This document shows, in pieces, positions 18,398 through 32,000 of a stretch of DNA of 32,000 nucleotides. The notes beneath the pieces are model-generated. The model saw only the letters and a program-made list of their open reading frames with translations. It ran no database searches and was not told where the DNA came from. A program made the translations under genes and the position numbers. Source of the stretch: Bellilinea caldifistulae. Its GTDB lineage: Bacteria > Chloroflexota > Anaerolineae > Anaerolineales > Anaerolineaceae. How positions within the stretch are numbered: position 1 is the first letter of the stretch; the number at the start of each line of letters is the position of its first letter. The stretch is from NCBI RefSeq assembly GCF_001306055.1, contig NZ_LGHJ01000020.1, forward strand, positions 30,001-62,000, read 5' to 3'.

Positions 18398-20533
18398 ATG
18401 AACATGCAAAGAAAACCCCTCTTTACAATTCTCGGCCTCATCATGGTCATTTCCATGGTGCTGGCAGCCTGCAGTACACCGGCAACACCGACCACTGAGG
18501 TCCAGCCGACTCAGCCGCCACAAACCGGACAACAACCCACTCAACCCCCTGTTGAATCGAAAGGCCCTCCGTTCACGATTGGGATTTCGAATCCGTTCAT
18601 CAGCAGTGAGTATCGGACGCAGATGATTGCGGAGTTGATTGAAGTCAACAAAGAGTATATGGACAAAGGGCTGACGACGGAATTGGTGATCGAGAGTGCG
18701 GACACGGACGTAGCCGGTCAGATTCAGCAGTTGCAGAATCTGATGGCGAAGGGTGTGGATGCGATTCTGGTCAATCCGAGTGATGTCAATGGTCTGAATG
18801 CGACGCTGCAAGAAGCGGTGAGCAAGGGGATCATTGTGATCTCGGTGGATCAGGAGTTGAATGTACCGGGCGTGTACAACGTGGGGATTGATCAGAAGGA
18901 ATGGGCGAAGACGAGTGCCAAGTGGCTGGCCGAGAAATTGGGCGGCAAGGGCAACATCGTGCTGATCGAAGGTTTTCCCGGTCATCCGGCGAATGTAGCG
19001 CGGATGGAAGGGGTAGACGAGGTGCTGTCGCAATACCCGGACATCAAAGTGCTGGCGAAGGACACGGGGAAATGGGATGAAGCGACCGGGCAGCAGGTGA
19101 TGTCGAACTTCCTGGCGGCGTATCCGAATCTGGATGGGTACTGGACGCAGGACGGTATGGCGATTGGGGCCTTGCAGGCGGTGATAGCGGCCAACCCGGC
19201 GAAGTTCCCGGTGGGTGTTGGTGAAGGTCGCTGCCAGTTCCTGAAGTTGTGGGAAGAGGTGTTGAAGGATCGCCCGGACTTTGAGACGATTGCGGTGGCC
19301 AATCCGCCGGGTGTTTCACCGACCGGGTTGCGGATTGCGGTGAACATGCTGCTGGGCAAGCAGGTGGACAAGAGCAAGCTGGGCGGAGCGAATGGTTTGT
19401 CATTCGTCATTCCGGTGCCGATTGTGATCACCAAGGACAACCTGCAACAGGGATTGGACATCTGCAAGGACAAACCGGATGCCTACCTGCTGGACGGCAT
19501 CATGACCGATCAGGAAGTTCTGGATACCTTCTTCGTCAAGGAACAGGCCGCCACCCGCAAATTCACGATTGGGATTTCGAATCCGTTCATCAGCAGTGAG
19601 TATCGGACGCAGATGATTGCGGAGTTGATTGAAGTCAACAAAGAGTACATGGACAAAGGGCTGACGACGGAATTGGTGATCGAGAGTGCGGACACGGACG
19701 TAGCCGGTCAGATTCAGCAGTTGCAGAATCTGATGGCGAAGGGCGTGGATGCGATTCTGGTCAATCCGAGTGATGTCAATGGTCTGAACGCGACGCTGCA
19801 AGAAGCGGTGAGCAAGGGGATCATTGTGATCTCGGTGGATCAGGAGTTGAATGTACCGGGCGTGTACAACGTGGGGATTGATCAGAAGGAATGGGCGAAG
19901 ACGAGTGCCAAGTGGCTGGCCGAGAAATTGGGCGGCAAGGGCAACATCGTGCTGATCGAAGGTTTTCCCGGTCATCCGGCGAATGTAGCGCGGATGGAAG
20001 GGGTAGACGAGGTGCTGTCGCAATACCCGGACATCAAAGTGCTGGCGAAGGACACGGGGAAATGGGATGAAGCGACCGGGCAGCAGGTGATGTCGAACTT
20101 CCTGGCGGCGTATCCGAATCTGGATGGGTACTGGACGCAGGACGGTATGGCGATTGGGGCCTTGCAGGCGGTGATAGCGGCCAACCCGGCGAAGTTCCCG
20201 GTGGGTGTTGGTGAAGGTCGCTGCCAGTTCCTGAAGTTGTGGGAAGAGGTGTTGAAGGATCGCCCGGACTTTGAGACGATTGCGGTGGCCAATCCGCCGG
20301 GTGTTTCACCGACCGGGTTGCGGATTGCGGTGAACATGCTGCTGGGCAAGCAGGTGGACAAGAGCAAGCTGGGCGGAGCGAATGGTTTGTCATTCGTCAT
20401 TCCGGTGCCGATTGTGATCACCAAGGACAACCTGCAACAGGGATTGGACATCTGCAAGGACAAACCGGATGCCTACCTGCTGGACGGCATCATGACCGAT
20501 CAGGAAGTTCTGGATACCTTCTTCTTGAAATAA
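18398..20533 (+). CDS. Lipoprotein ABC-transporter sugar-binding protein (type I PBP, RbsB-like) containing two tandem, nearly identical complete binding domains
   Basis: Signal peptide with the lipobox LAAC, then a Pro/Thr/Gln-rich tether. A 320-aa PBP domain starting FTIGISNPFISSEY follows and is repeated after the 9-aa linker VKEQAATRK. The true start may be the second ATG at 18404, which has better spacing to AAGGAG. Confidence 0.85.
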   Translation: MNMQRKPLFTILGLIMVISMVLAACSTPATPTTEVQPTQPPQTGQQPTQPPVESKGPPFTIGISNPFISSEYRTQMIAELIEVNKEYMDKGLTTELVIESADTDVAGQIQQLQNLMAKGVDAILVNPSDVNGLNATLQEAVSKGIIVISVDQELNVPGVYNVGIDQKEWAKTSAKWLAEKLGGKGNIVLIEGFPGHPANVARMEGVDEVLSQYPDIKVLAKDTGKWDEATGQQVMSNFLAAYPNLDGYWTQDGMAIGALQAVIAANPAKFPVGVGEGRCQFLKLWEEVLKDRPDFETIAVANPPGVSPTGLRIAVNMLLGKQVDKSKLGGANGLSFVIPVPIVITKDNLQQGLDICKDKPDAYLLDGIMTDQEVLDTFFVKEQAATRKFTIGISNPFISSEYRTQMIAELIEVNKEYMDKGLTTELVIESADTDVAGQIQQLQNLMAKGVDAILVNPSDVNGLNATLQEAVSKGIIVISVDQELNVPGVYNVGIDQKEWAKTSAKWLAEKLGGKGNIVLIEGFPGHPANVARMEGVDEVLSQYPDIKVLAKDTGKWDEATGQQVMSNFLAAYPNLDGYWTQDGMAIGALQAVIAANPAKFPVGVGEGRCQFLKLWEEVLKDRPDFETIAVANPPGVSPTGLRIAVNMLLGKQVDKSKLGGANGLSFVIPVPIVITKDNLQQGLDICKDKPDAYLLDGIMTDQEVLDTFFLK
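18572..19533 (+). repeat. Tandem duplication, copy 1 (962 bp)
   Basis: By direct line-by-line comparison it is identical to 19562-20523 except at 18658, 18744 and 18799 (T here, C in copy 2). Confidence 0.95.
19562..20523 (+). repeat. Tandem duplication, copy 2 (962 bp; offset 990 bp = 330 codons, in frame)
   Basis: 959 of 962 positions are identical to copy 1. A unique 28-bp junction (19534-19561) separates the two copies. Confidence 0.95.
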
Positions 20534-20537
20534 CTCT

Positions 20538-22058
20538 ATGAGTGTGTCGCTTTCTGCCCGCAATATTGTAAAGCGTTATGGGGGTGTCGTTGCGCTATCG
20601 GACGGGAACCTGGATGTGAAATCCGGGGAAGTGGTCGCATTGATTGGGGCAAATGGAAGCGGCAAAAGCACGATGAGTAAGGTCATCAACGGAGTAGTTG
20701 TCCTCGATGGAGGGCAACTACTCCTCGATGATAAACCCGTGCGCTTCTCTTCCCCGCAGGCGGCTCGAAAGATGGGTATTGCTACCGTCTTTCAAGAACT
20801 CAGCCTGGTAGCCAAAATGACTGTAGCGGATAATATCTGGTTGACGCGTGAACCGCTGAAGCCCAACGGGATGATTGACCGCAAAGTAATGCGGGAGCAG
20901 ACAGAGGCCCTGCTGGATTTGTTCAGCGGAACTTTCAAGGCCGATTTAAGGCCCGAAACGATCGTCTCCGATTTACACCCGGACGAAAAACAAATTGTAG
21001 AAATCCTAAAAGCCATCAGCCTTAATCCGCGCATTTTGATTCTGGATGAAGCGACGGCGAGCCTTGACAGCCGTCAGGTGGAGCGTTTGTTTGAACTGGT
21101 GAGACGGTGGAAAGAAGAAGGCAAAGCGATTGTCTTCGTTTCTCACCGCATGGAGGAAATTTTCCGCATAGCAGACCGTTATAGTGTCTTGCGGAATGGG
21201 AAAACGGTTGGGCAGGGGGATATCAAAGAGATCACGGAGAAAGATTTAATCCAACTGATGACCGAGAAAGAAAAGGTCTTTCAGTTCACCAAAGCAATTG
21301 CTTCTGAAGAAACAAGCGGTCTGGATCAACAAGTCTATCTGGAAGTAGAAAATTTGACCACCGAAACGCTGCGGGGAATCAGCCTGAAGGTGAAGCAGGG
21401 AGAATTGTTGGGAATTGGCGGTTTACAGGGGCAAGGACAGCGAGACTTGCTGCTGGCGTTGTTTGGGGACATACCTTACCATGGCACGGTTCGGATCAAA
21501 GGGGAAGTGGTGCGGTTCAAACACCCCCGGCAGGCGATGGATAAAAAATTGGCGCTTGTACCGGGGGATCGGGCTAGGGAAGGATTGCTCTATATTCGTT
21601 CGATCCTGGAGAACTTTTTGCTGCCTTCATGGCGGAAATACGGATTCCCGCTCAAGATGAAACTGGCGAAACGGGATGCAATGGCAATCAGTGAAAGGCT
21701 CAGTCTGGTCATGTCTGGCTTGATGGCACCGGTTAGCAGCCTTTCAGGCGGCAATGCTCAGAAGGTGGTCATTGGGAAATGGCTTTTGCGTGATCCGGAT
21801 TGTTATTTACTGGATGACCCGACCAAGGGGGTGGATGTGAACACCAAAGCCGAGTTTTATGCTTTGCTGACGGATCTTTCCAGGCAAGGGAAATCCATTT
21901 TGTTTTACAGCAGTGATGATGATGAATTAATCGGACTGTGTGACCGGGTAATTGTGCTTCATGATGGAAAAATTCGCGCTGAACTCAAAGGCGCTTCTTT
22001 GACCAAGGAAAATCTGATTGCTGCCAGCATGGGTGTTTCCAACGGAGGTGAGGCATGA
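20538..22058 (+). CDS. Sugar ABC transporter ATP-binding protein (CUT2/RbsA-type, two fused NBDs)
   Basis: First NBD: Walker A GANGSGKST, a signature-like region and Walker B ILILDEATASLD. Second NBD: the signature LSGGNAQKV and a degenerate P-loop, as is typical of RbsA/MglA-type proteins. Confidence 0.92.
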   Translation: MSVSLSARNIVKRYGGVVALSDGNLDVKSGEVVALIGANGSGKSTMSKVINGVVVLDGGQLLLDDKPVRFSSPQAARKMGIATVFQELSLVAKMTVADNIWLTREPLKPNGMIDRKVMREQTEALLDLFSGTFKADLRPETIVSDLHPDEKQIVEILKAISLNPRILILDEATASLDSRQVERLFELVRRWKEEGKAIVFVSHRMEEIFRIADRYSVLRNGKTVGQGDIKEITEKDLIQLMTEKEKVFQFTKAIASEETSGLDQQVYLEVENLTTETLRGISLKVKQGELLGIGGLQGQGQRDLLLALFGDIPYHGTVRIKGEVVRFKHPRQAMDKKLALVPGDRAREGLLYIRSILENFLLPSWRKYGFPLKMKLAKRDAMAISERLSLVMSGLMAPVSSLSGGNAQKVVIGKWLLRDPDCYLLDDPTKGVDVNTKAEFYALLTDLSRQGKSILFYSSDDDELIGLCDRVIVLHDGKIRAELKGASLTKENLIAASMGVSNGGEA

Positions 22059-23023
22059 AACGGTTTTCCTGGGATGAATTGATGAACCGCTACCCCGCCT
22101 TGTTTGCCATCCTCTTGCTGGTTGTAGCGCTGATCATCAACTTTATTTTGCAGCCCAACATGTTTGCCCGGGATACCTTAAATAGCAACATGCGGGTTTT
22201 CCTGCCGATGATTTTACTGGCTGCCGGGCAGGCAATTGTCATTTTGGGCGGCGGGATTGATATTTCGGTTGGCGGTATCGTTTCAATTGTCAATACCATT
22301 CTGGCAACTCAGGTGGGCTTGAACGGCTCGCCGGAAAAAATGTGGACGTATGTTTTTGTGTCGCTGGGCGCGGGCATTCTGGCAGGGGCAATCAACGGTT
22401 TCTTCATTGCCTTCCTGCGCTTGCAGCCGATTATCACCACCTATGCAACCAGTTTCCTGTATGTTGGTTTTGCTTTGTTTATTCTGCCCAATCCCGGCGG
22501 CGGTATTCCGGCTGCAATTGCCAATGTGTATCGGAACACAACCCCGTTGGGTTTACCGCTGGCTTTTTATGTAATTGCGGTTGTTTTGTTGATCTGGATG
22601 TATGTCCGCTCAACGCGGTTTGGAAATTACCTGTATGCGGTTGGCGGCAATGCTGAAGCGGCTTATGAAACGGCTGTACCGGTGACGTGGGTACTTTTCA
22701 GTACTTATGTTGTCTCCGGCTTTATGGCAGCCCTGGCAGGTATTGCCATAACAATGTTGAGCGGTTCCGGGAACGCCGAAATTGGTGTCCCGATGACGTT
22801 GACATCCATAACCGCGGTTGTAATCGGGGGGACGGCTCTGAGCGGTGGTGTTGGCGGGGTGGCAGGGCCGGTGGTTGGTGCGATTACATTGGGTATTATT
22901 CAAAACATTATTTCCTTTTCGCGGATTGATACCTGGTGGGAAACTTTTGTGAAAGCGACGATCATTGTGGTGGCACTGGCAGCCCCCGGTATTATCAATC
23001 TGCTGCGGAGGAAAAAAGTATGA
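22055..23023 (+). CDS. Sugar ABC transporter permease (RbsC/BPD_transp_2 family)
   Basis: Polytopic membrane protein with the GGIDLSVG-like motif (GGGIDISVGG). Its ATG overlaps the ATPase stop codon (ATGA). Confidence 0.9.
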   Translation: MKRFSWDELMNRYPALFAILLLVVALIINFILQPNMFARDTLNSNMRVFLPMILLAAGQAIVILGGGIDISVGGIVSIVNTILATQVGLNGSPEKMWTYVFVSLGAGILAGAINGFFIAFLRLQPIITTYATSFLYVGFALFILPNPGGGIPAAIANVYRNTTPLGLPLAFYVIAVVLLIWMYVRSTRFGNYLYAVGGNAEAAYETAVPVTWVLFSTYVVSGFMAALAGIAITMLSGSGNAEIGVPMTLTSITAVVIGGTALSGGVGGVAGPVVGAITLGIIQNIISFSRIDTWWETFVKATIIVVALAAPGIINLLRRKKV

Positions 23024-23988
23024 GAAGGTTTAGTATTTCGCCTCCTGTTGCGGCAATTTTGCTTGCAATTGTCCTTTTCCTGCTTTCGGGGTTTTTACCG
23101 AATGGATTTGGCAACGATATTAATGTGGCGATTGCTCAGGCCACCAATATTGTGCGGTTGGCGGTGTTTTTAGGAGTGATTGCCGCCGGTCAAACCCTGG
23201 TGATCATTAGCGGTTTTGAAGGAATTGATCTTTCGGCTGGTTCGGTAGTGACGTTAACGGCGATCCTGACCTATGTGACGGTGAAAGGGGAAGATGATAA
23301 AGTCCTGCTGGCACTGTTGATTTCACTGTCGGTCGGTGCGCTGATTGGCTTCATCAATGGTTTAGGAATCACCTTTCTAAAAATCTCTCCGTTTGTAATG
23401 ACGTTGGGGATGTCGGGTGTTGTGACTGGCCTGATCATCATCATCAATCATGGCAATGTCAGCGGAAAAGTAGCCCCCATTATGACCCGGCTGATCGCTC
23501 GTCCCCTCTCACCTGATATACCGATTCCGAATGCGATCATCATCTGGATTATTTTTGGGTTCCTGATGTGGCTGCTTTTGGAAAGATCAACCTTCGGCAA
23601 ACATCTTTTTGCAATCGGCGTCAACCGTGTGACGGCGAAACTTTCAGGGGTTAATGTTACAGCCACAAATCTGGCGGTCTACTCACTGGCGAGTGCGCTG
23701 GCCGGGTTTGGCGGTTTTCTGGTGGTGGGTAACACGGGTGTAGTCTTTATTGCGCTGGGACAGCCGTTCCTGTTTCCGTCTATTGCAGCAGTTGCAGTGG
23801 GTGGTACTTTACTATCGGGTGGTAAGGGTAGTTATTGGGGGACGATGGCGGGTGCCATTGTGCTGACTTTGATCACCAGCCTTTTAACCACCATGCAAAT
23901 GCCCGATTCAGTGCGCAGAATGGTATTGGGTGCAACGCTGCTGGTAATGATTTCAATCTACGGCCGGCAGCGCGGATTCAGACAATAA
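23020..23988 (+). CDS. Sugar ABC transporter permease (second RbsC-like subunit)
   Basis: Polytopic membrane protein with the motif GFEGIDLSAGS. I prefer the ATG at 23020, which overlaps the upstream stop (ATGA), over the listed start at 22936 that would overlap the previous gene by 88 nt. Confidence 0.88.
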   Translation: MRRFSISPPVAAILLAIVLFLLSGFLPNGFGNDINVAIAQATNIVRLAVFLGVIAAGQTLVIISGFEGIDLSAGSVVTLTAILTYVTVKGEDDKVLLALLISLSVGALIGFINGLGITFLKISPFVMTLGMSGVVTGLIIIINHGNVSGKVAPIMTRLIARPLSPDIPIPNAIIIWIIFGFLMWLLLERSTFGKHLFAIGVNRVTAKLSGVNVTATNLAVYSLASALAGFGGFLVVGNTGVVFIALGQPFLFPSIAAVAVGGTLLSGGKGSYWGTMAGAIVLTLITSLLTTMQMPDSVRRMVLGATLLVMISIYGRQRGFRQ

Positions 23989-24013
23989 AAATCATCATTT
24001 CAGGAGGCAGGCC

Positions 24014-25096
24014 ATGACTAAAACAGTAAAAGTTGGCATGATTGGAGCCGGTTTCGTCAGTGACATCCACGCCCATGCTTTTAAGCACTATGTTCACAAT
24101 GCCGAGGTTGTGGCTGTGGCATCACCCAACCGGGCAGGGGAATTTGCCAAAACTCATGGCATCCCCCACGCTTTTCATGACTACCGTGAAATGTTGAAAA
24201 TGAAAGAAATTGACGTGGTCACGGTAGCCATACCGAACTACCTTCATTGTCAGGCGACCCTCGACGCCGCAGCAGCGGGGAAGCACATCATTTGTGAAAA
24301 ACCGCTTTGCAAGACATTGGAAGAGGCCGATCAAATGATCGAAGCCACCAAGAAAGCAGGAGTCTTGCTGATGTATGCCGAGGAATTGTGCTTTGCGCCG
24401 AAATATGTGCGTGCCAAGCAATTGATAGAGGAAGGTGCCTTGGGCGAGCCGTTTCTTGTCAAGCAATCCGAAGAGCATGATGGCCCGCACATGCCTTGGT
24501 TCTGGGATGTGAACCTTTCCGGTGGCGGTGTGCTGCTGGATATGGGATGCCACTCGGTTGAATATGGGCGCTGGGTGTTTGGCAAACCGAAAGTCAAAAG
24601 CGTAACGGCATATTGTAATACTTTTGTGCATCGCGAACGGACCAAAGGTGAAGATCACTCGATTATGGTGATCGAGTATGAAGGCAACAAAATCAACATT
24701 GCCGAAAATTCGTGGGCGAAAGGCGGCGGGGTGGATGACCGCTGTGAGATTTATGGCACAAAGGGCAACACACGCGCCGATTTACTTAAAGGCAGCTCCT
24801 TGTGGACATACAGTCAGGAAGGGTATGGCTACGCCGTAGAGAAAGCCGGCACGACCCGCGGCTGGACGTTTACCATGTTCGAGGAAGTTTGGAATTACGG
24901 CTTCCCGCAGGAAATGCAGCACTTTGTGAATTGTGTGCTGGGAAAAGAAGAGCCAATCGAAACGGGCGAGGACGGTCGCGAAGTGCTGAAGATTTTGTAT
25001 GCTGCTTATCAATCTGCGGGCGAGGGCCGGCGGATTGAGTTTCCGTACAATCCGCCGCAGGTCGAAAAACCAATTGATTTGTGGCGAAAACTCTAA
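24014..25096 (+). CDS. Gfo/Idh/MocA-family oxidoreductase (paralogue 2)
   Basis: Rossmann N-terminus VGMIGAGFVSDIHA, an EKP motif (CEKPLC), and a C-terminal dimerisation domain. It shares the GPHxxWFWD....GGGxxxDMGCH block with paralogue 1. Confidence 0.88.
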   Translation: MTKTVKVGMIGAGFVSDIHAHAFKHYVHNAEVVAVASPNRAGEFAKTHGIPHAFHDYREMLKMKEIDVVTVAIPNYLHCQATLDAAAAGKHIICEKPLCKTLEEADQMIEATKKAGVLLMYAEELCFAPKYVRAKQLIEEGALGEPFLVKQSEEHDGPHMPWFWDVNLSGGGVLLDMGCHSVEYGRWVFGKPKVKSVTAYCNTFVHRERTKGEDHSIMVIEYEGNKINIAENSWAKGGGVDDRCEIYGTKGNTRADLLKGSSLWTYSQEGYGYAVEKAGTTRGWTFTMFEEVWNYGFPQEMQHFVNCVLGKEEPIETGEDGREVLKILYAAYQSAGEGRRIEFPYNPPQVEKPIDLWRKL

Positions 25097-25114
25097 TTCT
25101 TTACTGGAGGTATC

Positions 25115-25858
25115 ATGACAGCTATCAATGTGAAAACAATCACTTATGAACAATTGGCCAAGGTGATTGACCATTCGCTGTTGCGCCCGGAGCTGACTTC
25201 TCAGGAGGTTATCGAAGGATGTCAACTGGCGGCGCGTTATCATGTGGCAACGGTGTGCGTAAAGCCCTGTCATGTGCGCCTGGCGGCCGAGCAATTGAAA
25301 GACTCGGATGTGCTGGTCAGCACGGTGGTGGGCTTTCCGCATGGCAGCAGCGTGACCGAAATCAAGGTTGCTGAAGCCCAACGCGCTATGGATGACGGGG
25401 CAGTTGAGCTCGACATGGTGCTCAACATCGGCGAGCTCCGCTCGGGCAACGATGAATACGTTTATCAGGATATAAAAGCTGTGTGCGATGCTGCCCATGC
25501 CCGAGGCGTAAAGGTGAAGGTGATTCTGGAGAATGCTTACCTGACCGATGAGGAAAAAGTGCGCGCCTGCCAGCTGGCGGAAAAAGCCGGGGCCGACTGG
25601 GTAAAGACCTCTACCGGTTTTGCTCCCGGCGGGGCAATCCTGGATGACCTGCGTTTAATGCGCCGCTCGGTCAGCGAAAAAGTGCAAATTAAGGCGGCTG
25701 GCGGTGTGCGGACGCTGGATGCACTGCTGGCGGTAATTGAAGCGGGTGTGACCCGTTGTGGTGCTACCGCGACTGCCAAAATTTTGGACGACTTCAAAGC
25801 GCGTCAGGCCGGTGAACAGACCTCCACGGGTGAGGTAAAAATCGGTGGCGAATATTAG
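25115..25858 (+). CDS. deoC: Deoxyribose-phosphate aldolase (DeoC family class I aldolase)
   Basis: [38 protein letters not shown], and VKTSTGF (Schiff-base Lys region). Confidence 0.85.
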
Positions 25859-25875
25859 GAGAGGGGAGGGATAGT

Positions 25876-27036
25876 ATGACAAAATTGAGCAAATCAACCA
25901 TCGGGGTGGGAGTTGCCGGCACCGGTTTCATTGGACCTGCCCATGTTGAAGCCTTACGCCGCAATGGAATTACCGTGCTGGGACTGGCGGAAAATACCCG
26001 CGAAAAAGCCGAACAAAAGGCAGCCGAGATGGGCATTCCGCGCATTTACGGCTCGCTGGATGAGATGCTGAAGGACGATGACATTCAAGTTGTTCATCTG
26101 GCGACACCTAATTATCTCCATTACCCCCACGCCAAAGCGGCGTTATTGGCCGGTAAACATGTAGTTTGCGAAAAACCGCTTGCCATGAATACCCGCGAAT
26201 CGGCGGAACTGGTGCAACTGGCGAAGGAAACTGGCAAAGTCAATGTAGTCAATTTCAATATCCGTATGTATCCGCTGGTACAACAGGCACGCAGCATGGT
26301 GCAGAGCGGTGAATTGGGTGATTTATTCATCCTGCAAGGCTCTTATCTGCAAGATTGGCTATTGTTCCCGACGGATTGGAACTGGCGGTTGGAGCCGGAA
26401 CTGGGCGGTAGCCTGCGGGCGGTGGGTGACATTGGTTCACACTGGCTGGATTTGATCACTTTTATCACTGGATTGCGCGTAGTCGAGGTTTTTGCCGATT
26501 TCAAAACAATGCACCCCGTCCGCAAAAAACCGGCCAGGCCAGTGGAAACATACACGGGTAAGATTTTACAGCCGGAGGATTATGTTGACCAGCCCATTTT
26601 CACTGAGGATTATGCGACGGTTCTACTGCATTTTGAGAATGATGTACGCGGGGTGTTGACGGTCGGGCAGGTCTGTTCGGGACGTAAAAACCGCCTGTTC
26701 TTTGAGATCAACGCTTCGAAATCCTCGCTGGCGTGGGACTCGGAAAGGCCGAACGAATTGTGGGTGGGCCATCGTACTCAACCCAATCAAATCATCATGA
26801 AAGATCCGGCCTTGCTTTCACCTGAGGCACGGGCGGTTACGTCCTATCCCGGGGGACATAACGAGGGCTTCCCGGATACCTTCAAGCAACTTTACAACAA
26901 GGTGTATAACTACATCCTTGCCGGAGATTACAACAAACCACCCGATTTCCCCACCTTTGCGGATGGTCACTACGAGATGCAATTGTGTGAAGCCATCGAA
27001 CGCAGCGCAAAAGAAAAAGTTTGGATCAAAGTTTAA
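25876..27036 (+). CDS. Gfo/Idh/MocA-family oxidoreductase (paralogue 3)
   Basis: Rossmann N-terminus [14 protein letters not shown], an EKP motif (CEKPLA), and a longer, divergent C-terminal domain. Confidence 0.88.
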
Positions 27037-27054
27037 TCACATACGGAGGGAGCA

Positions 27055-27969
27055 ATGAAACTTGGATTTTTTACGGCCGCATTACCGGGGAGCACCCTGG
27101 AGGAAGTTGCCCGCTGGGGAGCAGAGAGCGGTTTTCAAGCCATCGAAATTGCTTGCTGGCCGCACGAGAAAGCCACGCGGCGCTATGCCGGTGTGACTCA
27201 CATTGATGTAGCCCAACTGGATCAACCCAGGGCTCGCGAGATCCGTAAAATGCTGGATGGGTACGGCTTGATGATCTCATCTTTGGGATATTATCCCAAT
27301 CCGCTCCATCCAGACCCGGAACATCGTGAGACGGTAATTGCCCACCTCAAAAAGGTGATTGACGCGGCGGCTTTGCTGGAGGTTGGTGTGGTGGGTACTT
27401 TCATTGGCAAAGACAAGAACAAGACTGTGCCGCAAAACCTTGAGGATTATGCCCGCATCTGGCCGCCGATTGTGCAATACGCCAAAGAGCGCGGGGTGAA
27501 AATTGCCATCGAGAACTGCCCGATGATTTTCTCTTACGACGAGTGGCCAGGCGGCAATAACCTGGCCAGCACACCGGCCATCTGGCGCAAAATGTGGGAG
27601 ATCATCCCGGAGGATAACTTTGGCTTGAATCTCGACCCCTCCCATCTGGTTTTGCAGATGATCGACTACGAACGTGTTGTGCGGGAATTTGCCAGTAAAA
27701 TCTTCCATGTCCATGCCAAAGACCTGCATATTGACCGCGAGGGGCTTTACAATCACGGTGTTCTGTCGCAAGGCATGGGCTGGCAAGTGCCGCGCTTGCC
27801 CGGCCTGGGTGATATGGACTGGGGCAAGTTCTTTGCAGCGCTGACGGCCGCCCGCTACGACTATGTGGTCAGTATTGAACATGAGGACCGGGCGTTTGAA
27901 GGATCGGAAGAACTGGTCAAGCGCGGTTTTTACCTTGCGCGGGATGTGTTGAAACCCTATATCCATTAG
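27055..27969 (+). CDS. Sugar phosphate isomerase/epimerase (xylose-isomerase-like TIM barrel, AP_endonuc_2 family)
   Basis: Typical pattern: GFQAIEI, IAIENCP, DPSHL, HAKD, SIEHED (metal ligands of the TIM-barrel family). Confidence 0.85.
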   Translation: MKLGFFTAALPGSTLEEVARWGAESGFQAIEIACWPHEKATRRYAGVTHIDVAQLDQPRAREIRKMLDGYGLMISSLGYYPNPLHPDPEHRETVIAHLKKVIDAAALLEVGVVGTFIGKDKNKTVPQNLEDYARIWPPIVQYAKERGVKIAIENCPMIFSYDEWPGGNNLASTPAIWRKMWEIIPEDNFGLNLDPSHLVLQMIDYERVVREFASKIFHVHAKDLHIDREGLYNHGVLSQGMGWQVPRLPGLGDMDWGKFFAALTAARYDYVVSIEHEDRAFEGSEELVKRGFYLARDVLKPYIH

Positions 27970-27980
27970 CCAGACCCGGA

Positions 27981-28022
27981 AACAGTCCTGTGCCTGGTGT
28001 TTTTACCGGGCACGGGACTGTT
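27981..28022 (+). terminator. Strong 18-bp stem-loop between the TIM-barrel gene and the glucokinase gene
   Basis: Left arm AACAGTCCTGTGCCTGGT (27981-27998), loop GTTTTT, right arm ACCGGGCACGGGACTGTT (28005-28022). There are two G-U pairs and the rest are Watson-Crick. No clear U-tract follows, so the terminator call is tentative. Confidence 0.4.
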
Positions 28023-28039
28023 ATGGATTATTATGACCT

Positions 28040-29008
28040 ATGAAACGATATATCGGCTGTGATTTAGGCGGCACCAATCTGCGTGCTGCACTGGTAGATA
28101 TTGAAACCGGCACGGTTCTCTTTCAGCAAAGTGTGCCAACATTGGCGCGCGAAGGCCACGATGCGGTCATGCAGCGCATGGCGGATTTGTTTCTCACCAT
28201 GATTAAGGCTGCCGGTCTACAAACAGAGGATGTTGGTGGGATCGGAATCGGCGTGCCGGGTGTGCTTGACCTCGAAAAAGGGGAAACCCTGTTTTTGCCC
28301 AACCTGCCGGGAACCTGGCCGCATGTGCCGTTGCGGGATGTACTGTACCAGGCGACAGGATTGCCGGTTGCGCTGTTGAATGATGTCCGTTCGATCACTT
28401 TTGGGGAATGGCGTTTTGGGGCAGGGCAGGGAGTGGATACTGTAGCCGTTCTGGCAATCGGTACGGGGATTGGCGGCGGACTGGTGATCAATGGGCAGTT
28501 ACATCTGGGAATCGGGGGTACCGCAGGCGAATTGGGTCACATGGTGATTGATTTCAACGGGCCGCGCTGCGGCTGCGGCAATTACGGTTGTCTGGAAGCG
28601 TTTGCCTCTGGACCGGCGATTGCAGCTATGGGCATGAAAGCCGTGGCACAGGGTTTGACGACCAAAATTGGTGAGTTGTGCGGTTATGATTTGAACGCCA
28701 TCACACCGGCGTTGATTGCGGAAGCTGCTCTCCAAGGGGATGAAATCGCTCGCGAAATTTACCAGCAGGTCGGTTTTTATCTGGGAGTTGCGGCTTCCAG
28801 TTTGTGCGCATCGGTCAGTCCACGGCGGATCATTGTCACCGGCGGCGTTGCCAACGCTGGCCGGCTGCTGCTTGATCCAATGGAAAAGACGATGCGTGAG
28901 CGGGTGCATATCATGCCGGTGGAACAGGTGGAAATTGTACCCGGACAGTTAGGAGATCATGCCGGGGTGGTTGGGGCAGCCTGTTGGGCGGCTAACCGGC
29001 TTGGGTAG
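28040..29008 (+). CDS. ROK-family glucokinase (no HTH domain)
   Basis: N-terminal ATP-binding motif [10 protein letters not shown], the ROK motif [11 protein letters not shown], and the Zn motif [15 protein letters not shown]. At 322 aa it is the size of a kinase rather than a regulator. Confidence 0.88.
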
Positions 29009-29057
29009 TCGGCGAGGTCTTTACCCTTTCTGATTTATGTGCGGCTTATTTTCATTG

Positions 29058-29066
29058 TGATATAAT
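29058..29066 (+). promoter_or_regulatory. Possible extended -10 promoter (TGaTATAAT) for the tRNA gene
   Basis: TG at 29058-29059, one nt, then TATAAT at 29061-29066, 29 nt upstream of the tRNA 5' end. Confidence 0.4.
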
Positions 29067-29094
29067 TTGGCTGCAAGGCAGTCAAGTGCCGCCG

Positions 29095-29166
29095 GGGCCC
29101 GTAGCTCAGCGGCAGAGCGCGCGGCTCATAACCGCTTGGTCGAAGGTTCGAATCCTTCCGGGCCCA
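29095..29166 (+). tRNA. tRNA with anticodon CAT (elongator Met, or Ile2 read as lysidine-CAU); CCA is not encoded
   Basis: Cloverleaf folded by hand. Acceptor stem: GGGCCCG/CGGGCCC. D arm: GCTC-AGCGGCA-GAGC. Anticodon arm: CGCGG-CTCATAA-CCGCT, with a C:T mismatch at positions 27:43. Variable loop: TGGTC. T arm: GAAGG-TTCGAAT-CCTTC. Discriminator: A. Confidence 0.9.
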
Positions 29167-29196
29167 CAGAAATCGTGTTGTTCGCCAGCCCCATTG

Positions 29197-29226
29197 AGGG
29201 GTGGTATTCGCACCCCGCATTTTTTT
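29197..29226 (+). terminator. Rho-independent terminator after the tRNA
   Basis: Stem GGGGTG / CACCCC (29197-29202 / 29210-29215) with a 7-nt loop, followed by a run of 7 T (29219-29225). A second small hairpin, GGGGA-TAT-TCCCC (29230-29242), follows. Confidence 0.7.
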
Positions 29227-29397
29227 GTCGGGGGATATTCCCCTTTCTGGTGATAAACAACCACGACCTCACTGAGTTTTTTTGATGGATAAGTCTCTGG
29301 ATCTGATAAAAATTACTCCCCCGACTTAACCCCAAAATCACCGTTTTTCTCCCCTGCGGGGGGATGGAATCGGCACGCGTTCTGGCGTAACATCAGC

Positions 29398-29931
29398 ATG
29401 ATGATACTTTCAACGAGTGTTTCTGCCGGAATGTGTGTGCTGGTGTGCAGCCGCGAGAGAGTGGGGGATGCAGCCACTCATCTGCTGGTTGAACTGGCGC
29501 TGCGCGGTGAGGCGCTGGCAATAGACGGCGGTAACCGCTTGCAAGCTTACCCGCTGGCGCGCGCCTTGCGTGAACGCACTAACCGTTTCGACTTTTTCTG
29601 CCAGCGGGTACTGATCCGGCGGGCGTTTACTGCCTATCAGTTGCTAGCGCTGCTGGAAAGCCTCCCTCTCCTTACCTCCCCGCTGGTCATTCTGGATCCG
29701 TTAGCTTCTTTTTATGATGAAACGCTGCCGGTCGGGCAGGCGCGCTGGCTGGTGCAGCGCTGTCTCCAGGAGATCGAGCGGTTGAAAAGAGCGGCACCGG
29801 TTTTTCTTTTGCTGAGAACCTGTCCCTTGCCGCAGCGCCGTTTTTTGCAGGACATGGTCTGCCGGCAGGCGGATACGCTTTTCTACGAGCAGGAGGAAAT
29901 AACCTCCTTTGTTCAACCCGCGTTGTTTTGA
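29398..29931 (+). CDS. Small (177 aa) RecA/RadB/KaiC-fold-like protein with a degenerate P-loop (hypothetical)
   Basis: Its motifs occur in the order seen in RecA-superfamily cores. First is a beta-strand plus loop at the Walker-A position, but it reads SRERVGDAAT and lacks a GK[ST]. Next is IRRAFTAYQLLALLESL. Then comes a Walker-B-like hydrophobic strand ending in Asp (PLVILDPLASFYDE), followed by a helix and strand (LQEIERLKRAAPVFLLLR). No database search was possible. Confidence 0.5.
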   Translation: MMILSTSVSAGMCVLVCSRERVGDAATHLLVELALRGEALAIDGGNRLQAYPLARALRERTNRFDFFCQRVLIRRAFTAYQLLALLESLPLLTSPLVILDPLASFYDETLPVGQARWLVQRCLQEIERLKRAAPVFLLLRTCPLPQRRFLQDMVCRQADTLFYEQEEITSFVQPALF

Positions 29932-29943
29932 GAGGTCAAGCCA

Positions 29944-30228
29944 ATGGGGCGTACGGTTCCAACCATCACCCGTCAACTGAATGAAACCGAAGCCATGCTG
30001 CAAACCTTTCGGCGGACGTTGCGGCGCGGTGATCAGGCTTTGCTGGATGGTCTGCTGGCATCTGCGCATCGTCATCTGGCTGCTATTTCGGCAAGCGGTG
30101 CGTTGCTGCCTTTTGAAGCCGCCTTACTGGCCATGCTGCTCGAACAAGCCCGCCGGATTGCGGCGCTGGAGGAGGAAATCCGCATCTTTCAGGAGGAAGT
30201 GGTGCGGCTGCGCGATGGCAAGGGTTGA
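29944..30228 (+). CDS. Hypothetical 94-aa, Ala/Leu/Arg-rich, probably all-helical protein
   Basis: The ORF starts 12 nt after the preceding stop and its last 14 nt overlap the PolB start. Its C-terminus looks like a coiled coil (IAALEEEIRIFQEEVVRLR). No recognisable family motif was seen. Confidence 0.45.
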   Translation: MGRTVPTITRQLNETEAMLQTFRRTLRRGDQALLDGLLASAHRHLAAISASGALLPFEAALLAMLLEQARRIAALEEEIRIFQEEVVRLRDGKG

Positions 30229-32000
30229 AAAGACCGGCTGGCTGATGGATGTGTACACCCGTCCGAGCGGTGAACTGGTCTGCTGGTTGTTGAGCGAGGA
30301 CGGGCAGCGCTGGCTGCTGCCGATGGATTTTCCGGTTACTTTTTACGCGGCAGGCAGCTTGGCGGTGCTGCGGCAGGCCTGGCGCTTTTTGCGGGGGCGC
30401 GGAGTACAACTTTCCCGGCAGGTGCGCCGTGATCTGTTTCACGGAGAGCGGGTTGTGTTGTCCGCAACCTTGGATTTGCCCGGACGTCTGCCTGAGACCT
30501 ACCGCCGCCTGGCGCAGGCTTTTCCGGTATTGGATTACTACGATGCTGACCTGCCGCTCTCTGTGCGTTTTGTGGCTGGTACGCAAGTGCCGCTGCTGGG
30601 ACGCTGCCGCTTTGAAACCGACGGCCAGCGTTTGTTGGGATTGCAGCCGCTTGAGTCGGCTTGGGAGATGCAGCCCTCGCTGCCGCCCCTGCGGGTGATG
30701 GAAATCGAGTGTGACGCCGAGCCGGCGTTGCATCCCCCGCAGGAGATCGTCATTCGCTGCGACAGACGCTGCTATCGTTTTCCCTTGCAGCCCTTGCGTG
30801 CCTTTGTGGTCAACCTGCAGGCACTGCTGGGGACTTACGATCCGGACGTAATTCTGACCCGTTATGGCGATACCTGGCTGTTCCCGTTCTTAAGCGAACA
30901 TGCTCCGTCTTTCAACCCCAACCGCGACGAGCAGATGAAGGTTGAGTTTCGCCGCGAGCGCAGTTTGTTTGCTTATGGGCAGGTGCTTTACCGCGGGGCG
31001 CAAGCCCTGCTGTTTGGGCGCTGGCACATTGACCGTTGTAATGCCGCTTTGTTTGCCGAAATCGGGCTGACCGGTGCCCTGGAGATGGCACGGGTTACCG
31101 GTTTGGGGGTGCAGGAGGCGGTGCGCAAGTCACCGGGTGCAGGCATTACCGCCATGCAAATGCAGACTGCCCTGAGGGATGGAGTGCTGATCCCGGCGGT
31201 CAAACAGCAAGCGGAAGCTACCCGCACACTGGTTAGTCTGATTCGCTATGATCGGGGGGGGATGGTCTACCAGCCGCTGGTTGGTGTGCATCGTCATGTT
31301 GCCGAACTGGATTTTGCTTCAATGTACCCGGCGATCATGGTGCGTTATAACATCTCGCCGGAAACACTCTACCAGAGGGATGCGCCGGCCGGCTTAATTC
31401 CGCGCACGCTGCAACCCCTGCTGGTCAAGCGTCTGGCGCTCAAACATTGCCTGCATACCCTCGACCGGCGCGACAGCCGTGTAAGCGATTTGAAAGCCCG
31501 TCAGACGGCGCTCAAGTGGCTACTGGTGGTGTGTTTTGGATATCTGGGGTACAAAAATGCCCGGTTTGGGCGAGTGGAATCACACGAGGCGGTTACCGCC
31601 ATCAGCCGCGAGTTGCTGCTGCAGGCCAAGGAAAATGCTGAGGATATGGGATTCACCATCCTGCACATGTATGTGGACAGTTTGTTTGTAAAACGAGAGG
31701 ATACCCGGACTGAAGCGGATTTTCTGCCACTGGCAGAGAAAATTCAGGCAGAGACGGGTATTGGGGTGACCCTTGAAGGCGTATATCGCTGGCTGGTGTT
31801 TTTGCCGGCCTGCCGTGATCAACGCATTCCGGTGGCAAACCGTTATTTTGGGGTGTTTGAGGATGGTACGTTGAAGTATCGTGGCATTGCCCTGCGCCGT
31901 CATGATACCTGTCCGTATGTTGCCCAAACGCAGCTGGATATATTGAGTTGTCTGGCGCAGGCAGATGATCCGCGAGAGCAATGGAAAGAGGCATGGGGTC
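30215..32000 (+). CDS. Family-B DNA polymerase (archaeal/Pol II-like, RNA-primed type), 3' partial. It is divergent, with a degenerate exonuclease domain. It is not in the supplied ORF track because it has no stop within the window.
   Basis: My own translation from the ATG at 30215 gives 595 codons with no stop up to nt 32000. It aligns by eye to Pfu-type PolB. Matching blocks are DPDVILTRYGDTWLFPFL (Exo II region), GRWHIDRCN, GGMVYQPLVGVHRHVAELDFASMYPAIMVRYNISPETL (motif A), RQTALKWLLVVCFGYLGYKNARF (motif B), GFTILHMYVDSLFV (motif C) and NRYFGV...YRGIALRRHD (KxY region). Confidence 0.85.
   Translation, partial: MARVEKTGWLMDVYTRPSGELVCWLLSEDGQRWLLPMDFPVTFYAAGSLAVLRQAWRFLRGRGVQLSRQVRRDLFHGERVVLSATLDLPGRLPETYRRLAQAFPVLDYYDADLPLSVRFVAGTQVPLLGRCRFETDGQRLLGLQPLESAWEMQPSLPPLRVMEIECDAEPALHPPQEIVIRCDRRCYRFPLQPLRAFVVNLQALLGTYDPDVILTRYGDTWLFPFLSEHAPSFNPNRDEQMKVEFRRERSLFAYGQVLYRGAQALLFGRWHIDRCNAALFAEIGLTGALEMARVTGLGVQEAVRKSPGAGITAMQMQTALRDGVLIPAVKQQAEATRTLVSLIRYDRGGMVYQPLVGVHRHVAELDFASMYPAIMVRYNISPETLYQRDAPAGLIPRTLQPLLVKRLALKHCLHTLDRRDSRVSDLKARQTALKWLLVVCFGYLGYKNARFGRVESHEAVTAISRELLLQAKENAEDMGFTILHMYVDSLFVKREDTRTEADFLPLAEKIQAETGIGVTLEGVYRWLVFLPACRDQRIPVANRYFGVFEDGTLKYRGIALRRHDTCPYVAQTQLDILSCLAQADDPREQWKEAWG

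Follow-up and report, generated by a model that had tools for sequence, protein, structure and literature searches.

An exonuclease-degenerate, PolB2-type DNA polymerase encoded with iRadA and PPB2 in Bellilinea caldifistulae

The 32,000-nucleotide stretch of DNA analysed here (the window) belongs to Bellilinea caldifistulae (Chloroflexota, Anaerolineae), and it carries an operon of three genes in the order iRadA-PPB2-PolB2, with the polymerase gene in last position:

29398-29931, + strand: iRadA, first gene, 177 aa, ATPase-dead RadA/Rad51-like protein
29944-30228, + strand: PPB2 (DUF8156), second gene, 94 aa, with an MGRT N-terminus
30215-32000, + strand: PolB2, third gene, ATG at 30215, interrupted by the window end

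The start of PolB2 overlaps the stop of PPB2 by 14 nt. PolB2 is 707 aa long in the genome; the window contains codons 1-595, and the thumb and the C-terminus are encoded past its end. The same gene order was seen in 66 of 80 related genomes, and a PPB2 gene was present in 71 of 80 loci. It is a published type of bacterial operon, and the operon of a Bellilinea sp. has been catalogued as '1a (iRadA-PPB2-PolB2)' (Timinskas 2025, PMC11791011). The neighbouring 10 kb on each side are occupied by sugar-catabolism and acetyl-CoA synthetase genes, and no integrase, Cas1 or phage gene was found within that distance on either side. A tRNA-Met gene lies 230 nt upstream of the operon, an adjacency that is not kept among orthologous loci. 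Close relatives have the polymerase annotated generically, as DNA polymerase or hypothetical protein, and both small partners as 'hypothetical' or 'DUF8156'.

PolB2 matched the B-family polymerase model PF00136 of Pfam (2.3e-20). Its AF2 model (pLDDT 88.6, pTM 0.87) found 5mdn, 3k59 and 4k8z (Pol II, KOD) as best Foldseek matches, with TMq of 0.69-0.73 (0.66-0.73 over the top matches) and a probability of 1.0, and PolB2 has a complete B-family polymerase fold with N-terminal, exo-like, palm and fingers domains. Archaeal-type PolBs were closest to the family profile (5mdn, 8.9e-55), whereas E. coli Pol II was far (2.5e-13). BLASTP aligned the palm and fingers with S. islandicus Dpo2 (33.5% identity, 212 aa, 131 bits), and an alignment to euryarchaeal PolB2 (30%, 402 aa, 121 bits) included the N-terminal and exo regions, which scored only about 10 bits against any PolB in the PDB. 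Among NCBIfam models, NF004416 ranked above NF004418 and both far above the Pol I and Pol II models, and Dpo2 ranked them likewise. The curated cut-off of no NCBIfam model was reached; full-length PolB2 scored 359.6 bits against the 516 bits set for NF004416 (type B DNA-directed DNA polymerase, equivalog), and with two archaeal PolB2 references, both partial at 399 aa, NF004416 was also first and also under its cut-off. Two other identities were considered and rejected. An E. coli-type Pol II is contradicted by the Pol II models of NCBIfam, whose best score was 61.5 bits, with cut-offs of 570-1435, and by the absence of intact Exo I/II/III and canonical motifs B/C, while a piPolB or casposon PolB does not agree with the degenerate exonuclease or with the surrounding 10 kb, free of integrase and Cas1.

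A previous sequence-only reading had aligned the protein to B-family polymerases by eye. Its six motif strings and their coordinates are exact translations in the frame of the ORF starting from ATG 30215, and the residue equivalences that we obtained with phmmer and a family profile (HMMER) against solved archaeal PolB structures were the same. Conservation was examined in two comparison sets, one of 100 relatives with 57-94% identity and one of 120 representatives with 33-60% identity (121 sequences with the query). The exonuclease-like domain contains the following features:

30698-30712, + strand: Exo I remnant MEIEC (canonical FDIET), model strand 161-165
30839-30892, + strand: Exo II remnant DPDVILTRYGDTWLFPFL, last part YGDTWLFPFL (30863-30892), Gly-Asp pair retained, Asn replaced by Tyr217 and catalytic Asp by Leu222
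31016-31042, + strand: GRWHIDRCN, family-conserved strand (G268, R269, H271, D273)

Alignment of LRVMEIEC to LRVLAFDIEV confirmed that Exo I is degenerate, and the Glu-x-Glu left in MEIEC is incidental, because positions 163 (E/R/T/K) and 165 (R/S/E) vary across the PolB2 family (121 sequences). For Exo II, DPDVILTRYGDTWLFPFL aligned to DPDVIITYNGDNF(D/A)FPYL, which bears out both reported substitutions; family-wide, 103 of 121 sequences have L/I/V at position 222, and W/Y/G/F occupy position 217. The gap between GRWHIDRCN and the palm-proximal helix LEMARVTG is exactly 12 residues (277-288). Since the GRWHID strand (270-273) of the AF2 model runs directly into helix 280-295, the helical segment that bears Exo III in canonical PolBs is absent, a deletion that the earlier reading had noticed and that was already published (PMC7544198). 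That reading had named canonical motifs elsewhere in the chain as the evidence that would count against it. A regular-expression scan of the full 707 aa found no NxxxFD, DTD, KxxxNSxYG or KxY. The sole DxE (D167-A-E169) is not conserved even among 90%-identical relatives, and the sole YxxxD (Y108-D112) lies inside a conserved N-terminal 'DYYDAD' block, outside the exo region. Alignment and model together show a domain that has neither Exo I nor Exo II carboxylates and no Exo III helix at all.

The polymerase domain combines retained and substituted active-site residues:

31310-31339, + strand: motif A DFASMYPAIM, catalytic Asp366 and steric-gate Tyr371
31514-31552, + strand: motif B variant KWLLVVCFGYLGY, Lys434 retained, Asn replaced by Val, Ser by Val/Thr and Tyr by Phe
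31664-31681, + strand: motif C variant HMYVDS, first Asp replaced by Tyr486, metal-ligand Asp488 and PolB2-specific His484 retained
31838-31846, + strand: KxY equivalent N542-R543-Y544, aligned to KKRY of 5mdn

Motif A is intact, as had been read, with LDFASMYP aligned to LDFRSLYP; all 121 sequences have D366, and residue 371 is Y in 111 of them and F in the other 10. The motif B substitutions were reproduced by the HMMER alignment of KWLLVVCFGYLGY to KILANSYYGYYGY. The family motif is K-W-x-L-V-[TV]-[CS]-F-G-Y, the corresponding sequence of Sulfolobus Dpo2 is KWILVASFGYLGY, and the exact patterns KWLLVVCF or GYLGYKNA pointed to PolB relatives at no fewer than 580 places (at least) in a species-representative genome set. 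The motif B loop 442-447 has low confidence in the AF2 model, and some homologs hold inteins within this motif. In motif C (LHMYVDSLF, aligned to IYGDTDSLF) only the second Asp remains, as claimed, and His484 stands two residues ahead of the lost one. All 121 sequences have D488 and 112 of them H484, residue 486 varies between I, L and Y, and the family motif H-x-[ILY]-[VT]-D-S can be compared with HSIIDS of S. islandicus Dpo2. In canonical PolBs, the lysine of KxY contacts the primer terminus. As the equivalent in PolB2 is NRY, this lysine is lost, and the family counts at the three positions are N in 99, R in 109 and Y in 96 or F in 25 of 121 sequences.

The substituted motifs are invariant in the 100 relatives and family-wide in the 120 divergent representatives, in which Asp366, Lys434, Asp488 and the steric-gate Tyr371 are also invariant or nearly so. 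dN/dS of PolB2 was 0.075 overall and 0.072 in the exo-like domain, and this value of about 0.07 shows that the gene is constrained, not decaying. Strong purifying selection has kept active-site positions, retained and substituted alike, fixed in hundreds of genomes.

Another family mark lies between the exonuclease-like domain and motif A:

31178-31255, + strand: loop containing a beta-alpha element, with the D(K/R) motif at its end; model: short strand, low-confidence loop 333-336, helix 339-345

The group-specific D(K/R) motif is D346-R347 (31250-31255), followed by GG, and lies before the (D/Y)xGG block. D346 occurs in 121 of 121 sequences and is equivalent to 253-DK-254 of S. islandicus; in published models, the region of PolB2 bearing this motif contacts iRadA and PPB2 (PMC11791011). 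D346-R347 and N542-R543-Y544 are both family marks that the sequence-only reading did not mention. The hallmarks of the B2/G2 group have been described as an unconserved Exo I, an Exo III 'missing altogether', and a motif C with the second Asp only and a conserved His (Kazlauskas 2020, PMC7544198). Because PolB2 is nearest to archaeal PolB2/Dpo2, shares their NCBIfam ranking, has the B2/G2 hallmarks and is encoded in an iRadA-PPB2-PolB2 operon, its sequence marks the gene as an ordinary member of the published bacterial G2/PolB2 group of B-family polymerases. The bacterial clade is nested inside B2 in published trees (Kazlauskas 2020, PMC7544198; Timinskas 2025, PMC11791011), and the group and its predicted mutasome were described earlier (Makarova 2014; Kazlauskas 2020, PMC7544198; Timinskas 2025, PMC11791011). 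The earlier prediction of an exonuclease-dead, PolB2-type protein is supported by the alignment, the AF2 model, the PolB2 hallmarks and the operon, and the two small partner proteins of which it spoke are the upstream iRadA and PPB2 of this published operon type.

The first gene has two features of its own:

29464-29478, + strand: degenerate Walker A (P-loop) G-D-A-A-T of iRadA; RadA has G-K-T/S, and Lys is replaced by an acidic residue
29914-29928, + strand: C-terminal QPALF of iRadA, beta-clamp-binding-type pentapeptide (consensus QLxLF) in a disordered tail

iRadA had no match in Pfam and NCBIfam, and its family HMM matched published euryarchaeal iRadA (E=1e-7). The best 50 Foldseek matches of its AF2 model (pLDDT 81.9) in the PDB were all RadA/RAD51/DMC1/RAD51-paralog cores (TMq 0.61-0.73, probability 1.0); the protein corresponds to the RadA/Rad51 ATPase core without the N-terminal helical (DNA-binding/oligomerisation) domain. 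None of 17 aligned homologs has Lys at the P-loop position, which is mostly D or E, and iRadA is an ATPase-inactive homolog with ATP-binding residues lost. In the tail (residues 166-177, pLDDT below 50), Q173 and L176 do not vary, F177 reaches at least 90% conservation, and orthologs end in QPxLF, QLSLF or PxRLF. Some records place the iRadA start at Met12 (29431). PPB2 ('partner of PolB2', arCOG07300/DUF8156) is preceded by a GAGG Shine-Dalgarno-like sequence at 29932-29935 and matches B. caldifistulae BECAL_01448 at 100% identity, a protein assigned to PF26485 (DUF8156) in precomputed Pfam data. Its MGRT arm (29944-29955) forms the N-terminus in 120 of 120 PPB2 homologs, and the PPB2 family HMM matched published euryarchaeal PPB2 (E=1e-10).

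Taken from these features and from archaeal enzymology, the ORF very probably encodes the catalytic subunit of a bacterial PolB2 'mutasome' (G2 group, acquired from archaea), a proofreading-free extender of mismatched or lesion ends that works with iRadA and PPB2. According to published AlphaFold models, PolB2 would form a complex with one iRadA and a PPB2 trimer, and the iRadA tail may tether this complex to the beta clamp. The complex would polymerise without proofreading and mainly extend mismatched or lesion-paired primer ends, completing translesion synthesis once another polymerase has inserted a nucleotide, and the loss of the exonuclease would spare the aberrant terminus from removal. 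The Asn to Val and Tyr to Phe changes in motif B and the change of KxY to NRY plausibly relax terminal base-pair checking through altered minor-groove and triphosphate contacts. The Dpo2 enzymes of S. islandicus and S. solfataricus polymerise robustly and have no exonuclease; they insert accurately on undamaged DNA and specialise in extending mismatched or lesion-paired termini (PMC8764526). Dpo2 is damage-induced (PMC8764526; PMC11791011), and S. islandicus genetics tied it to damage tolerance and targeted mutagenesis (PMC11791011). The activity and role of the bacterial PolB2 are extrapolated from these Sulfolobus enzymes, at about 33% identity, because the literature cited contains no biochemically characterised bacterial PolB2. 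The earlier suggestion of a 'low-fidelity or translesion-capable' enzyme can be kept in its second half, as translesion capability is probable from Dpo2, whereas low fidelity does not fit the accurate insertion by that enzyme.

Another reading, in line with speculation in Makarova 2014, is an active complex whose main task is not translesion extension but recombination-associated or replication-restart synthesis, or control of initiation, by means of the RadA-like partner. The partner is indeed obligatory, archaeal operons are associated with Orc1/Cdc6 (Makarova 2014), and the B. caldifistulae operon has no LexA box. However, iRadA lacks both the ATPase site and the N-terminal DNA-binding/oligomerisation domain, orthologous promoters bear LexA-type boxes, and the S. 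islandicus genetics link Dpo2 to damage tolerance and mutagenesis, so we regard this role as unlikely. An older view, in which Makarova 2014 classed PolB2 as inactivated and which survived as the 'catalytically compromised, structural' option of the sequence-only reading, sees PolB2 as a catalytically dead protein with a scaffolding or regulatory role, comparable to the C-terminal half of Pol epsilon. The first motif C Asp, the motif B Asn/Ser/Tyr, the KxY Lys and all exonuclease carboxylates are replaced, and the low model confidence in the motif B loop points the same way. Against this stand the metal ligands D366 and D488 together with K434 and Y371, whose near-invariance in 121 sequences down to 33% identity is unexpected for a dead site, and the inteins within motif B of some homologs; Dpo2 with the same substitutions is a robust polymerase (PMC8764526), and piPolBs are active though they lack the first motif C Asp (Kazlauskas 2020, PMC7544198). 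We consider this outdated view very unlikely to apply here. That PolB2 replicates an integrated mobile element (pipolin-type piPolB, casposon or prophage) has a negligible probability, although tRNA-Met lies nearby and piPolBs likewise lack the first motif C Asp (PMC7544198), given the unconserved tRNA adjacency, the flanks free of integrase, Cas1 and phage genes, an exonuclease degenerate unlike those of piPolB and casposon PolBs, and partners that are iRadA and PPB2.

The proposed mutasome subunit was compared with known systems. Nothing substantive differs from the bacterial G2/PolB2 mutasome PolB2-iRadA-(PPB2)3 (PMC7544198, PMC11791011), examples of which are Leptospirillum ferriphilum LFML04_0990-0993 and the congeneric Bellilinea sp. 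GIV65311/GIV65312: the gene order is the same, and the unconserved Exo I, missing Exo III, motif C with a single Asp and His, D(K/R), PPB2 MGRT arm and beta-clamp motif on the iRadA tail are shared. Unlike in those systems, lexA is not adjacent in B. caldifistulae and no LexA box was found. Clamp motifs there lie mostly on iRadA and rarely on both subunits (Timinskas 2025, PMC11791011), whereas the C-terminus of B. caldifistulae PolB2, past the window end, adds a QxxLPL-like string. Dpo2 of S. islandicus and Saccharolobus solfataricus shares a near-identical motif B (KWILVASFGYLGY), motif C (H-x-I-I-D-S), the DK motif, the lack of functional exonuclease motifs and the iRadA and PPB2 partners; it differs in its archaeal gene order PPB2-PolB2-iRadA, a much more eroded exo domain without GRxHxD, the use of PCNA instead of the beta clamp, and regulation via Orc1-2, not LexA. 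Only the archaeal Dpo2 has been assayed. The E. coli Pol V mutasome (UmuD'2C-RecA-ATP) is also a multisubunit, damage-linked, proofreading-free translesion polymerase that binds the beta clamp and combines a subunit of the RecA family with small accessory proteins that are dimeric or trimeric, but its catalytic subunit is Y-family, its RecA is the active cellular recombinase rather than a dedicated dead paralog, and UmuD' is not homologous to PPB2. The ImuA-ImuB-DnaE2 cassette likewise has a dedicated inactive RecA-like protein (ImuA), an accessory subunit with a beta-clamp motif and an error-prone polymerase without proofreading, and is often LexA-controlled; it differs in using C-family DnaE2 and an inactive Y-family protein as clamp adaptor, with no PPB2 equivalent. 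Eukaryotic Pol zeta (Rev3-Rev7) and E. coli Pol II are B-family enzymes that take part in translesion synthesis. Pol zeta, too, is exonuclease-dead and extends aberrant termini, but keeps DTD and has other accessory subunits, and Pol II has an intact exonuclease and canonical motifs.

Upstream of iRadA, the following elements were located:

29349-29364, + strand: palindrome/hairpin CTCCCCTGCGGGGGGA, immediately before the putative operon promoter
29364-29393, + strand: putative sigma-70-type promoter, -35-like ATGGAA (29364-29369), 18-nt spacer, -10-like TAACAT (29388-29393)

C-runs precede the hairpin at 29318-29322 and 29330-29333. Among 67 orthologous upstream regions, 23 have CCCC-N3-6-GGGG between -120 and +30 relative to the start of iRadA, compared to 0.4 expected from shuffles, and in 0.92 Mb of loci 16 of 24 matches to TCCCC-N3-6-GGGGA fell at the hairpin position, as did 2 more whose ORF start is mis-called. 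The stem covaries in other species (TCACC/GGTGA, TCCTC/GAGGA, CCCT/AGGG). The putative promoter was inferred by eye from aligned orthologous upstream regions, in which the hairpin is followed by a conserved GATTG(T/A) and a TAnnnT hexamer precedes ATG by 4-8 nt; a consensus promoter scan gave no call for 29364-29393. Its end 4 nt before ATG suggests a leaderless or near-leaderless mRNA. No LexA-type box (GAAC-N4-GTTC, up to 1 mismatch) was found in 23770-32000, and no lexA within 10 kb on either side of the B. caldifistulae operon or within 6 kb in 80 related loci. A link to DNA damage comes from nine orthologous operons, where a perfect AGAAC-N4-GTTCT box lies between positions -47 and -89 relative to the start; for six of these the bases downstream were examined, and each time the box abuts a TATAAT/TATACT -10. 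The conserved promoter-adjacent hairpin, in the equivalent place of which sister lineages have a LexA box, is the only loose end. It is conceivable, if rather doubtful, that the Bellilinea-type operon is controlled without LexA through this C-run and G-run hairpin element (29318-29364) abutting the -35 of a leaderless promoter, either as the operator of a damage-response regulator or as a read-through insulator that silences a mutagenic polymerase.

The substitution pattern is already known as the published PolB2/G2 signature, and a congeneric operon is part of the published data set. The unusual residues, as hallmarks of the family in print, are therefore no new discovery; as such the finding matters little, and its practical value is modest. 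Genome annotation of PolB2 and both partners could be improved. If true, control through the non-LexA element would point to a further way of regulating induced mutagenesis in Chloroflexota, second to LexA and so far undescribed. What is known of the bacterial PolB2 mutasome comes so far from archaeal enzymology and AlphaFold models, and as B. caldifistulae is a cultured thermophile, its three proteins could allow the first biochemical or structural test of that complex.

The B-family polymerase gene that begins at 30215 encodes a protein, PolB2, whose exonuclease site is without ligands and whose polymerase site retains the steric gate, the lysine of motif B and the two aspartates that act as metal ligands. 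It shares a translationally coupled operon with a dedicated dead RadA (iRadA) and a small MGRT protein (PPB2), and the three genes are as follows:

29398-29931, plus strand: iRadA, 177 aa, with a fold match to RadA/RAD51 cores
29944-30228, plus strand: PPB2, 94 aa, with a precomputed Pfam assignment to DUF8156
30215 (ATG) to the window end at 32000, plus strand: PolB2, 595 codons inside the window, since the frame runs past its end

Full-length PolB2 has 707 aa in the genome, and positions 29398-32000 are identical to contig DF967971.1 of GCA_001050215.2. Pfam assigned DNA_pol_B to the protein, and the top NCBIfam model was NF004416 (360 bits for the full length, under the curated 516), followed by NF004418, with archaeal Pol I and Pol II models scoring far lower. 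The same ranking was obtained for the Sulfolobus islandicus PolB2, Dpo2, and for a euryarchaeal PolB2, both being partial reference sequences from the supplement of PMC11791011. By BLASTP, PolB2 was 33.5% identical to Dpo2 over 212 aa (131 bits) and 30% identical to the euryarchaeal protein over 402 aa, including the N-terminal and exo-like regions, which barely align to any solved PolB. Dpo2 carries the same unusual pattern, with KWILVASFGYLGY as motif B and HSIIDS as motif C.

Motifs of PolB2 and, after the semicolon, of solved archaeal PolBs
Exo I: MEIEC; FDIEV/T
Exo II: YGDTWLFPFL; NGDNF(D)FPYL
Motif A: LDFASMYP; LDFRSLYP
Motif B: KWLLVVCFGYLGY; KILANSYYGYYGY
Motif C: LHMYVDS; IYGDTDS

The sequence-only reading had claimed from a by-eye alignment that the exonuclease and fidelity motifs are replaced while motif A is intact, and this observation was confirmed by translation, phmmer, profile alignment and a regex scan. 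Its six peptide strings each translate exactly where it had placed them, exactly 12 residues separate GRWHIDRCN from LEMARVTG where it had given about 12, and its alignment was reproduced both with phmmer and with a family profile of 22 sequences searched against all PDB chains. NxxxFD, DTD, KxxxNSxYG and KxY gave no match in the regex scan of full-length PolB2. The sole YxxxD lies within an N-terminal 'DYYDAD' block, and the only DxE, at 167-169 just past MEIEC, was rejected because it is unconserved in relatives at 82-94% identity; thus no canonical motifs were found elsewhere in the protein. Single-sequence phmmer aligned 'HIDRCNAAL' with the Exo III region of 5mdn, but even so aligned the motif is not rescued, because position -4 lacks a Tyr and the Asp is shifted by one residue.

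Residues ~240-334 were left unaligned to any PDB chain by the family profile. The AlphaFold2 model of PolB2, built with 100 homologs as input (pLDDT 88.6, pTM 0.87), resembles Pyrobaculum PolB, E. coli Pol II and KOD (TMq 0.66-0.73), and its exo-like domain retains the strand of Exo I (161-165) and the helix of Exo II (218-229). GRWHID forms a strand (270-273), not the Exo III helix, and leads straight into helix 280-295; therefore the helical segment bearing Exo III is missing, in agreement with the deletion proposed from the sequence. GRWHID(R) was also considered as the published D(K/R) motif and rejected, as indexing S. islandicus Dpo2 pairs DK 253-254 with D346-R347 (ADKGG and YDRGG). Supplement 2 of PMC11791011 places this DK at 253-254, agreeing with the paper, and places the motif C 'IID' at 391-393 versus 401-403 in the main text, which reflects either inconsistent numbering in the source or a gap in the text as stored.

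All of the altered motifs were invariant in 100 PolB2 relatives at 57-94% identity. When 1.84 billion cluster representatives were searched exhaustively with HMMER, 619 clusters were returned at E<=1e-30, and a wide comparison was made with 120 full-length representatives at 33-60% identity to PolB2, counts being given over 121 sequences. D366, D488, G268, R269 and D346 were invariant, K434 was kept in 120 and H484 in 112 of the 121 sequences, and residue 371 was Tyr in 111 and Phe in 10. In the same comparison, the first-Asp position of motif C was I, L or Y, the catalytic-Asp position of Exo II was L, I or V, the acidic positions of Exo I were unconserved, and the KxY motif read N-R-Y. Against an 87%-identical ortholog, dN/dS was 0.075 for the whole protein and 0.072 for the exo-like domain. 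Given this conservation and the low dN/dS, the altered pattern is fixed and under selection rather than decaying. Four homologs of 1210-1274 aa (P0319, P0354, P0395 and P0398) contain inteins with LAGLIDADG homing endonucleases; the match breaks at or beside residue 440-441, within motif B (KWLLVVCF/GY), in P0319, P0395 and P0398, and at query residue 385 in P0354.

The exact peptides KWLLVVCF and GYLGYKNA located PolB2 relatives at at least 580 places (one genome per species). The best 80 of these loci were nearly all labelled Chloroflexota/Anaerolineae, one record being an uncultured Methylomonas MAG, and partner HMMs found the order iRadA-PPB2-PolB2 in 66 of the 80, with the exceptions mostly at contig ends. 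The two small upstream proteins had no match in our Pfam or NCBIfam scans, and their identities were drawn from fold search, conserved context and literature. The iRadA model (pLDDT 81.9) matched solely RadA/RAD51/DMC1/RAD51-paralog cores (TMq 0.61-0.73), and only 16 homologs were found by word-index search. Its P-loop reads GDAAT, the lysine being absent from every homolog, and a conserved QPALF, a pentapeptide of the beta-clamp-binding type, closes its disordered C-terminus. Some public records start iRadA at Met12 (29431; 166 aa) instead of ATG 29398/29401; the longer form is probably right, because homologs share the N-terminal extension ('(M)ILxxxxxxG') and it agrees with the spacing of the promoter, and the mRNA may be leaderless. 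PPB2 matches Bellilinea caldifistulae BECAL_01448 at 100% identity, the MGRT N-terminus is present in it and in 120 of 120 homologs, and its stop overlaps the PolB2 start by 14 nt. Two operon versions occur on different contigs of the Bellilinea sp. MAG KatS3mg046 (P0121/P0123 and P0001), with iRadA 99% and 87% identical to that of the window, representing either several strains binned together or a pair of paralogous operons.

The operon ends downstream at a convergent ADP-forming acetyl-CoA synthetase gene. The following features lie upstream of it:

29095-29167: tRNA-Met (CAT) gene
29198-29216: terminator-like hairpin and T-run after the tRNA
29318-29393: conserved element and putative promoter
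29349-29364: C-run/G-run hairpin CTCCCCTGCGGGGGGA with C-runs before it, conserved in orthologous loci
Directly downstream of the hairpin: putative -35 (ATGGAA) and -10 (TAACAT), ending 4 nt before the iRadA ATG

Rfam found nothing upstream of the operon beyond the tRNA. CCCC-N3-6-GGGG was present at a constant distance in 23 of the 67 upstream regions of orthologous operons versus 0.4 expected, and in 0.92 Mb of loci the element was largely restricted to the spot upstream of iRadA. The core was invariant in 22 copies, with almost no covariation by RNAalifold, and variants in the loci of other lineages preserved the pairing. The hairpin may serve as an operator or an insulator-terminator, or have some other role. 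A perfect LexA/Cheo-type box, AGAAC-N4-GTTCT, was found 47-89 nt upstream of iRadA in nine orthologous operons (L023, L038, L041, L045, L050, L052, L059, L063 and L080), followed within two bases by TATAAT in L041, L045, L050, L052, L059 and L063, and by TATACT in L080. None of the nine has the CCCC/GGGG hairpin, and the two elements are therefore mutually exclusive in this sample. No LexA-type box was found near the operon in the window, searching the literature for a LexA motif of Chloroflexi gave nothing useful, and phmmer with an approximate E. coli LexA query, which a distant LexA could escape, found no lexA within 6 kb in the best 80 of at least 580 loci. Makarova et al. 2014 described the linkage of PolB2, inactivated RadA and arCOG07300, also in bacteria and sometimes with lexA (PMC4104785). 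The boxes at orthologous operons support an SOS link for the PolB2 family.

Beyond the tRNA lies a sugar ABC-transporter and catabolism cluster (~18400-29008), unrelated to PolB2, with a periplasmic binding protein, an ABC ATPase, two permeases, two GFO/IDH/MocA oxidoreductases, a DeoC aldolase, a ROK kinase and an AP_endonuc_2 (xylose-isomerase-like TIM barrel) protein.

The altered-motif feature is already known. Kazlauskas et al. 2020 defined the bacterial G2 subclade nested within archaeal B2, with Exo I unconserved, Exo III wholly missing, motif C reduced to a single conserved Asp accompanied by a conserved His, and a D(K/R) motif (PMC7544198), a hallmark list that is the same as that of the sequence-only reading; a 2026 survey restates that all G2/PolB2 exonuclease domains are inactivated (PMC12926913). 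Timinskas et al. 2025 renamed the partners iRadA and PPB2, modelled a PolB2:iRadA:(PPB2)3 complex, found the MGRT arm and an iRadA-binding beta-alpha loop before D(K/R), located clamp motifs mainly on iRadA, gave iRadA-PPB2-PolB2 as the sole bacterial order, and include a Bellilinea sp. operon in their tables under type 1a (PMC11791011). Feng et al. 2022 showed that Dpo2 is a robust polymerase with no exonuclease, accurate in insertion on undamaged DNA and efficient in extending mismatched or lesion-paired termini (PMC8764526).

By homology, PolB2, iRadA and PPB2 would assemble together, be recruited to the beta clamp, and extend aberrant primer termini in translesion synthesis. The iRadA tail is of the clamp-binding type, and replacement of the motif B Asn and Tyr and of the KxY Lys would remove contacts with which canonical B-family enzymes check nascent and terminal base pairs, which fits an extender role. 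A role in recombination or restart has less support. The sequence-only reading had predicted an exonuclease-dead enzyme, either low-fidelity or translesion-capable, or catalytically compromised with a structural role; the interpretation is supported, but its inactive alternative is outdated, and a dead scaffold is unlikely because the catalytic residues are invariant and Dpo2 is active. A mobile-element polymerase at tRNA-Met was rejected: neither integrase nor Cas1 nor phage genes occur within 10 kb of the operon, and the tRNA adjacency is not conserved, since in a few orthologous loci it is tRNA-Ser that stands directly upstream. Past the window end, PolB2 terminates in ...KKQQYYLPLLK (12360-12392 of the B. 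caldifistulae locus L081), and close relatives have QFHLPL, QFYLPL or QPRLPL, resembling the hexapeptide beta-clamp motif QLxLxL. If this motif is real, clamp motifs would be present on both iRadA and PolB2 here, an arrangement called rare by PMC11791011.
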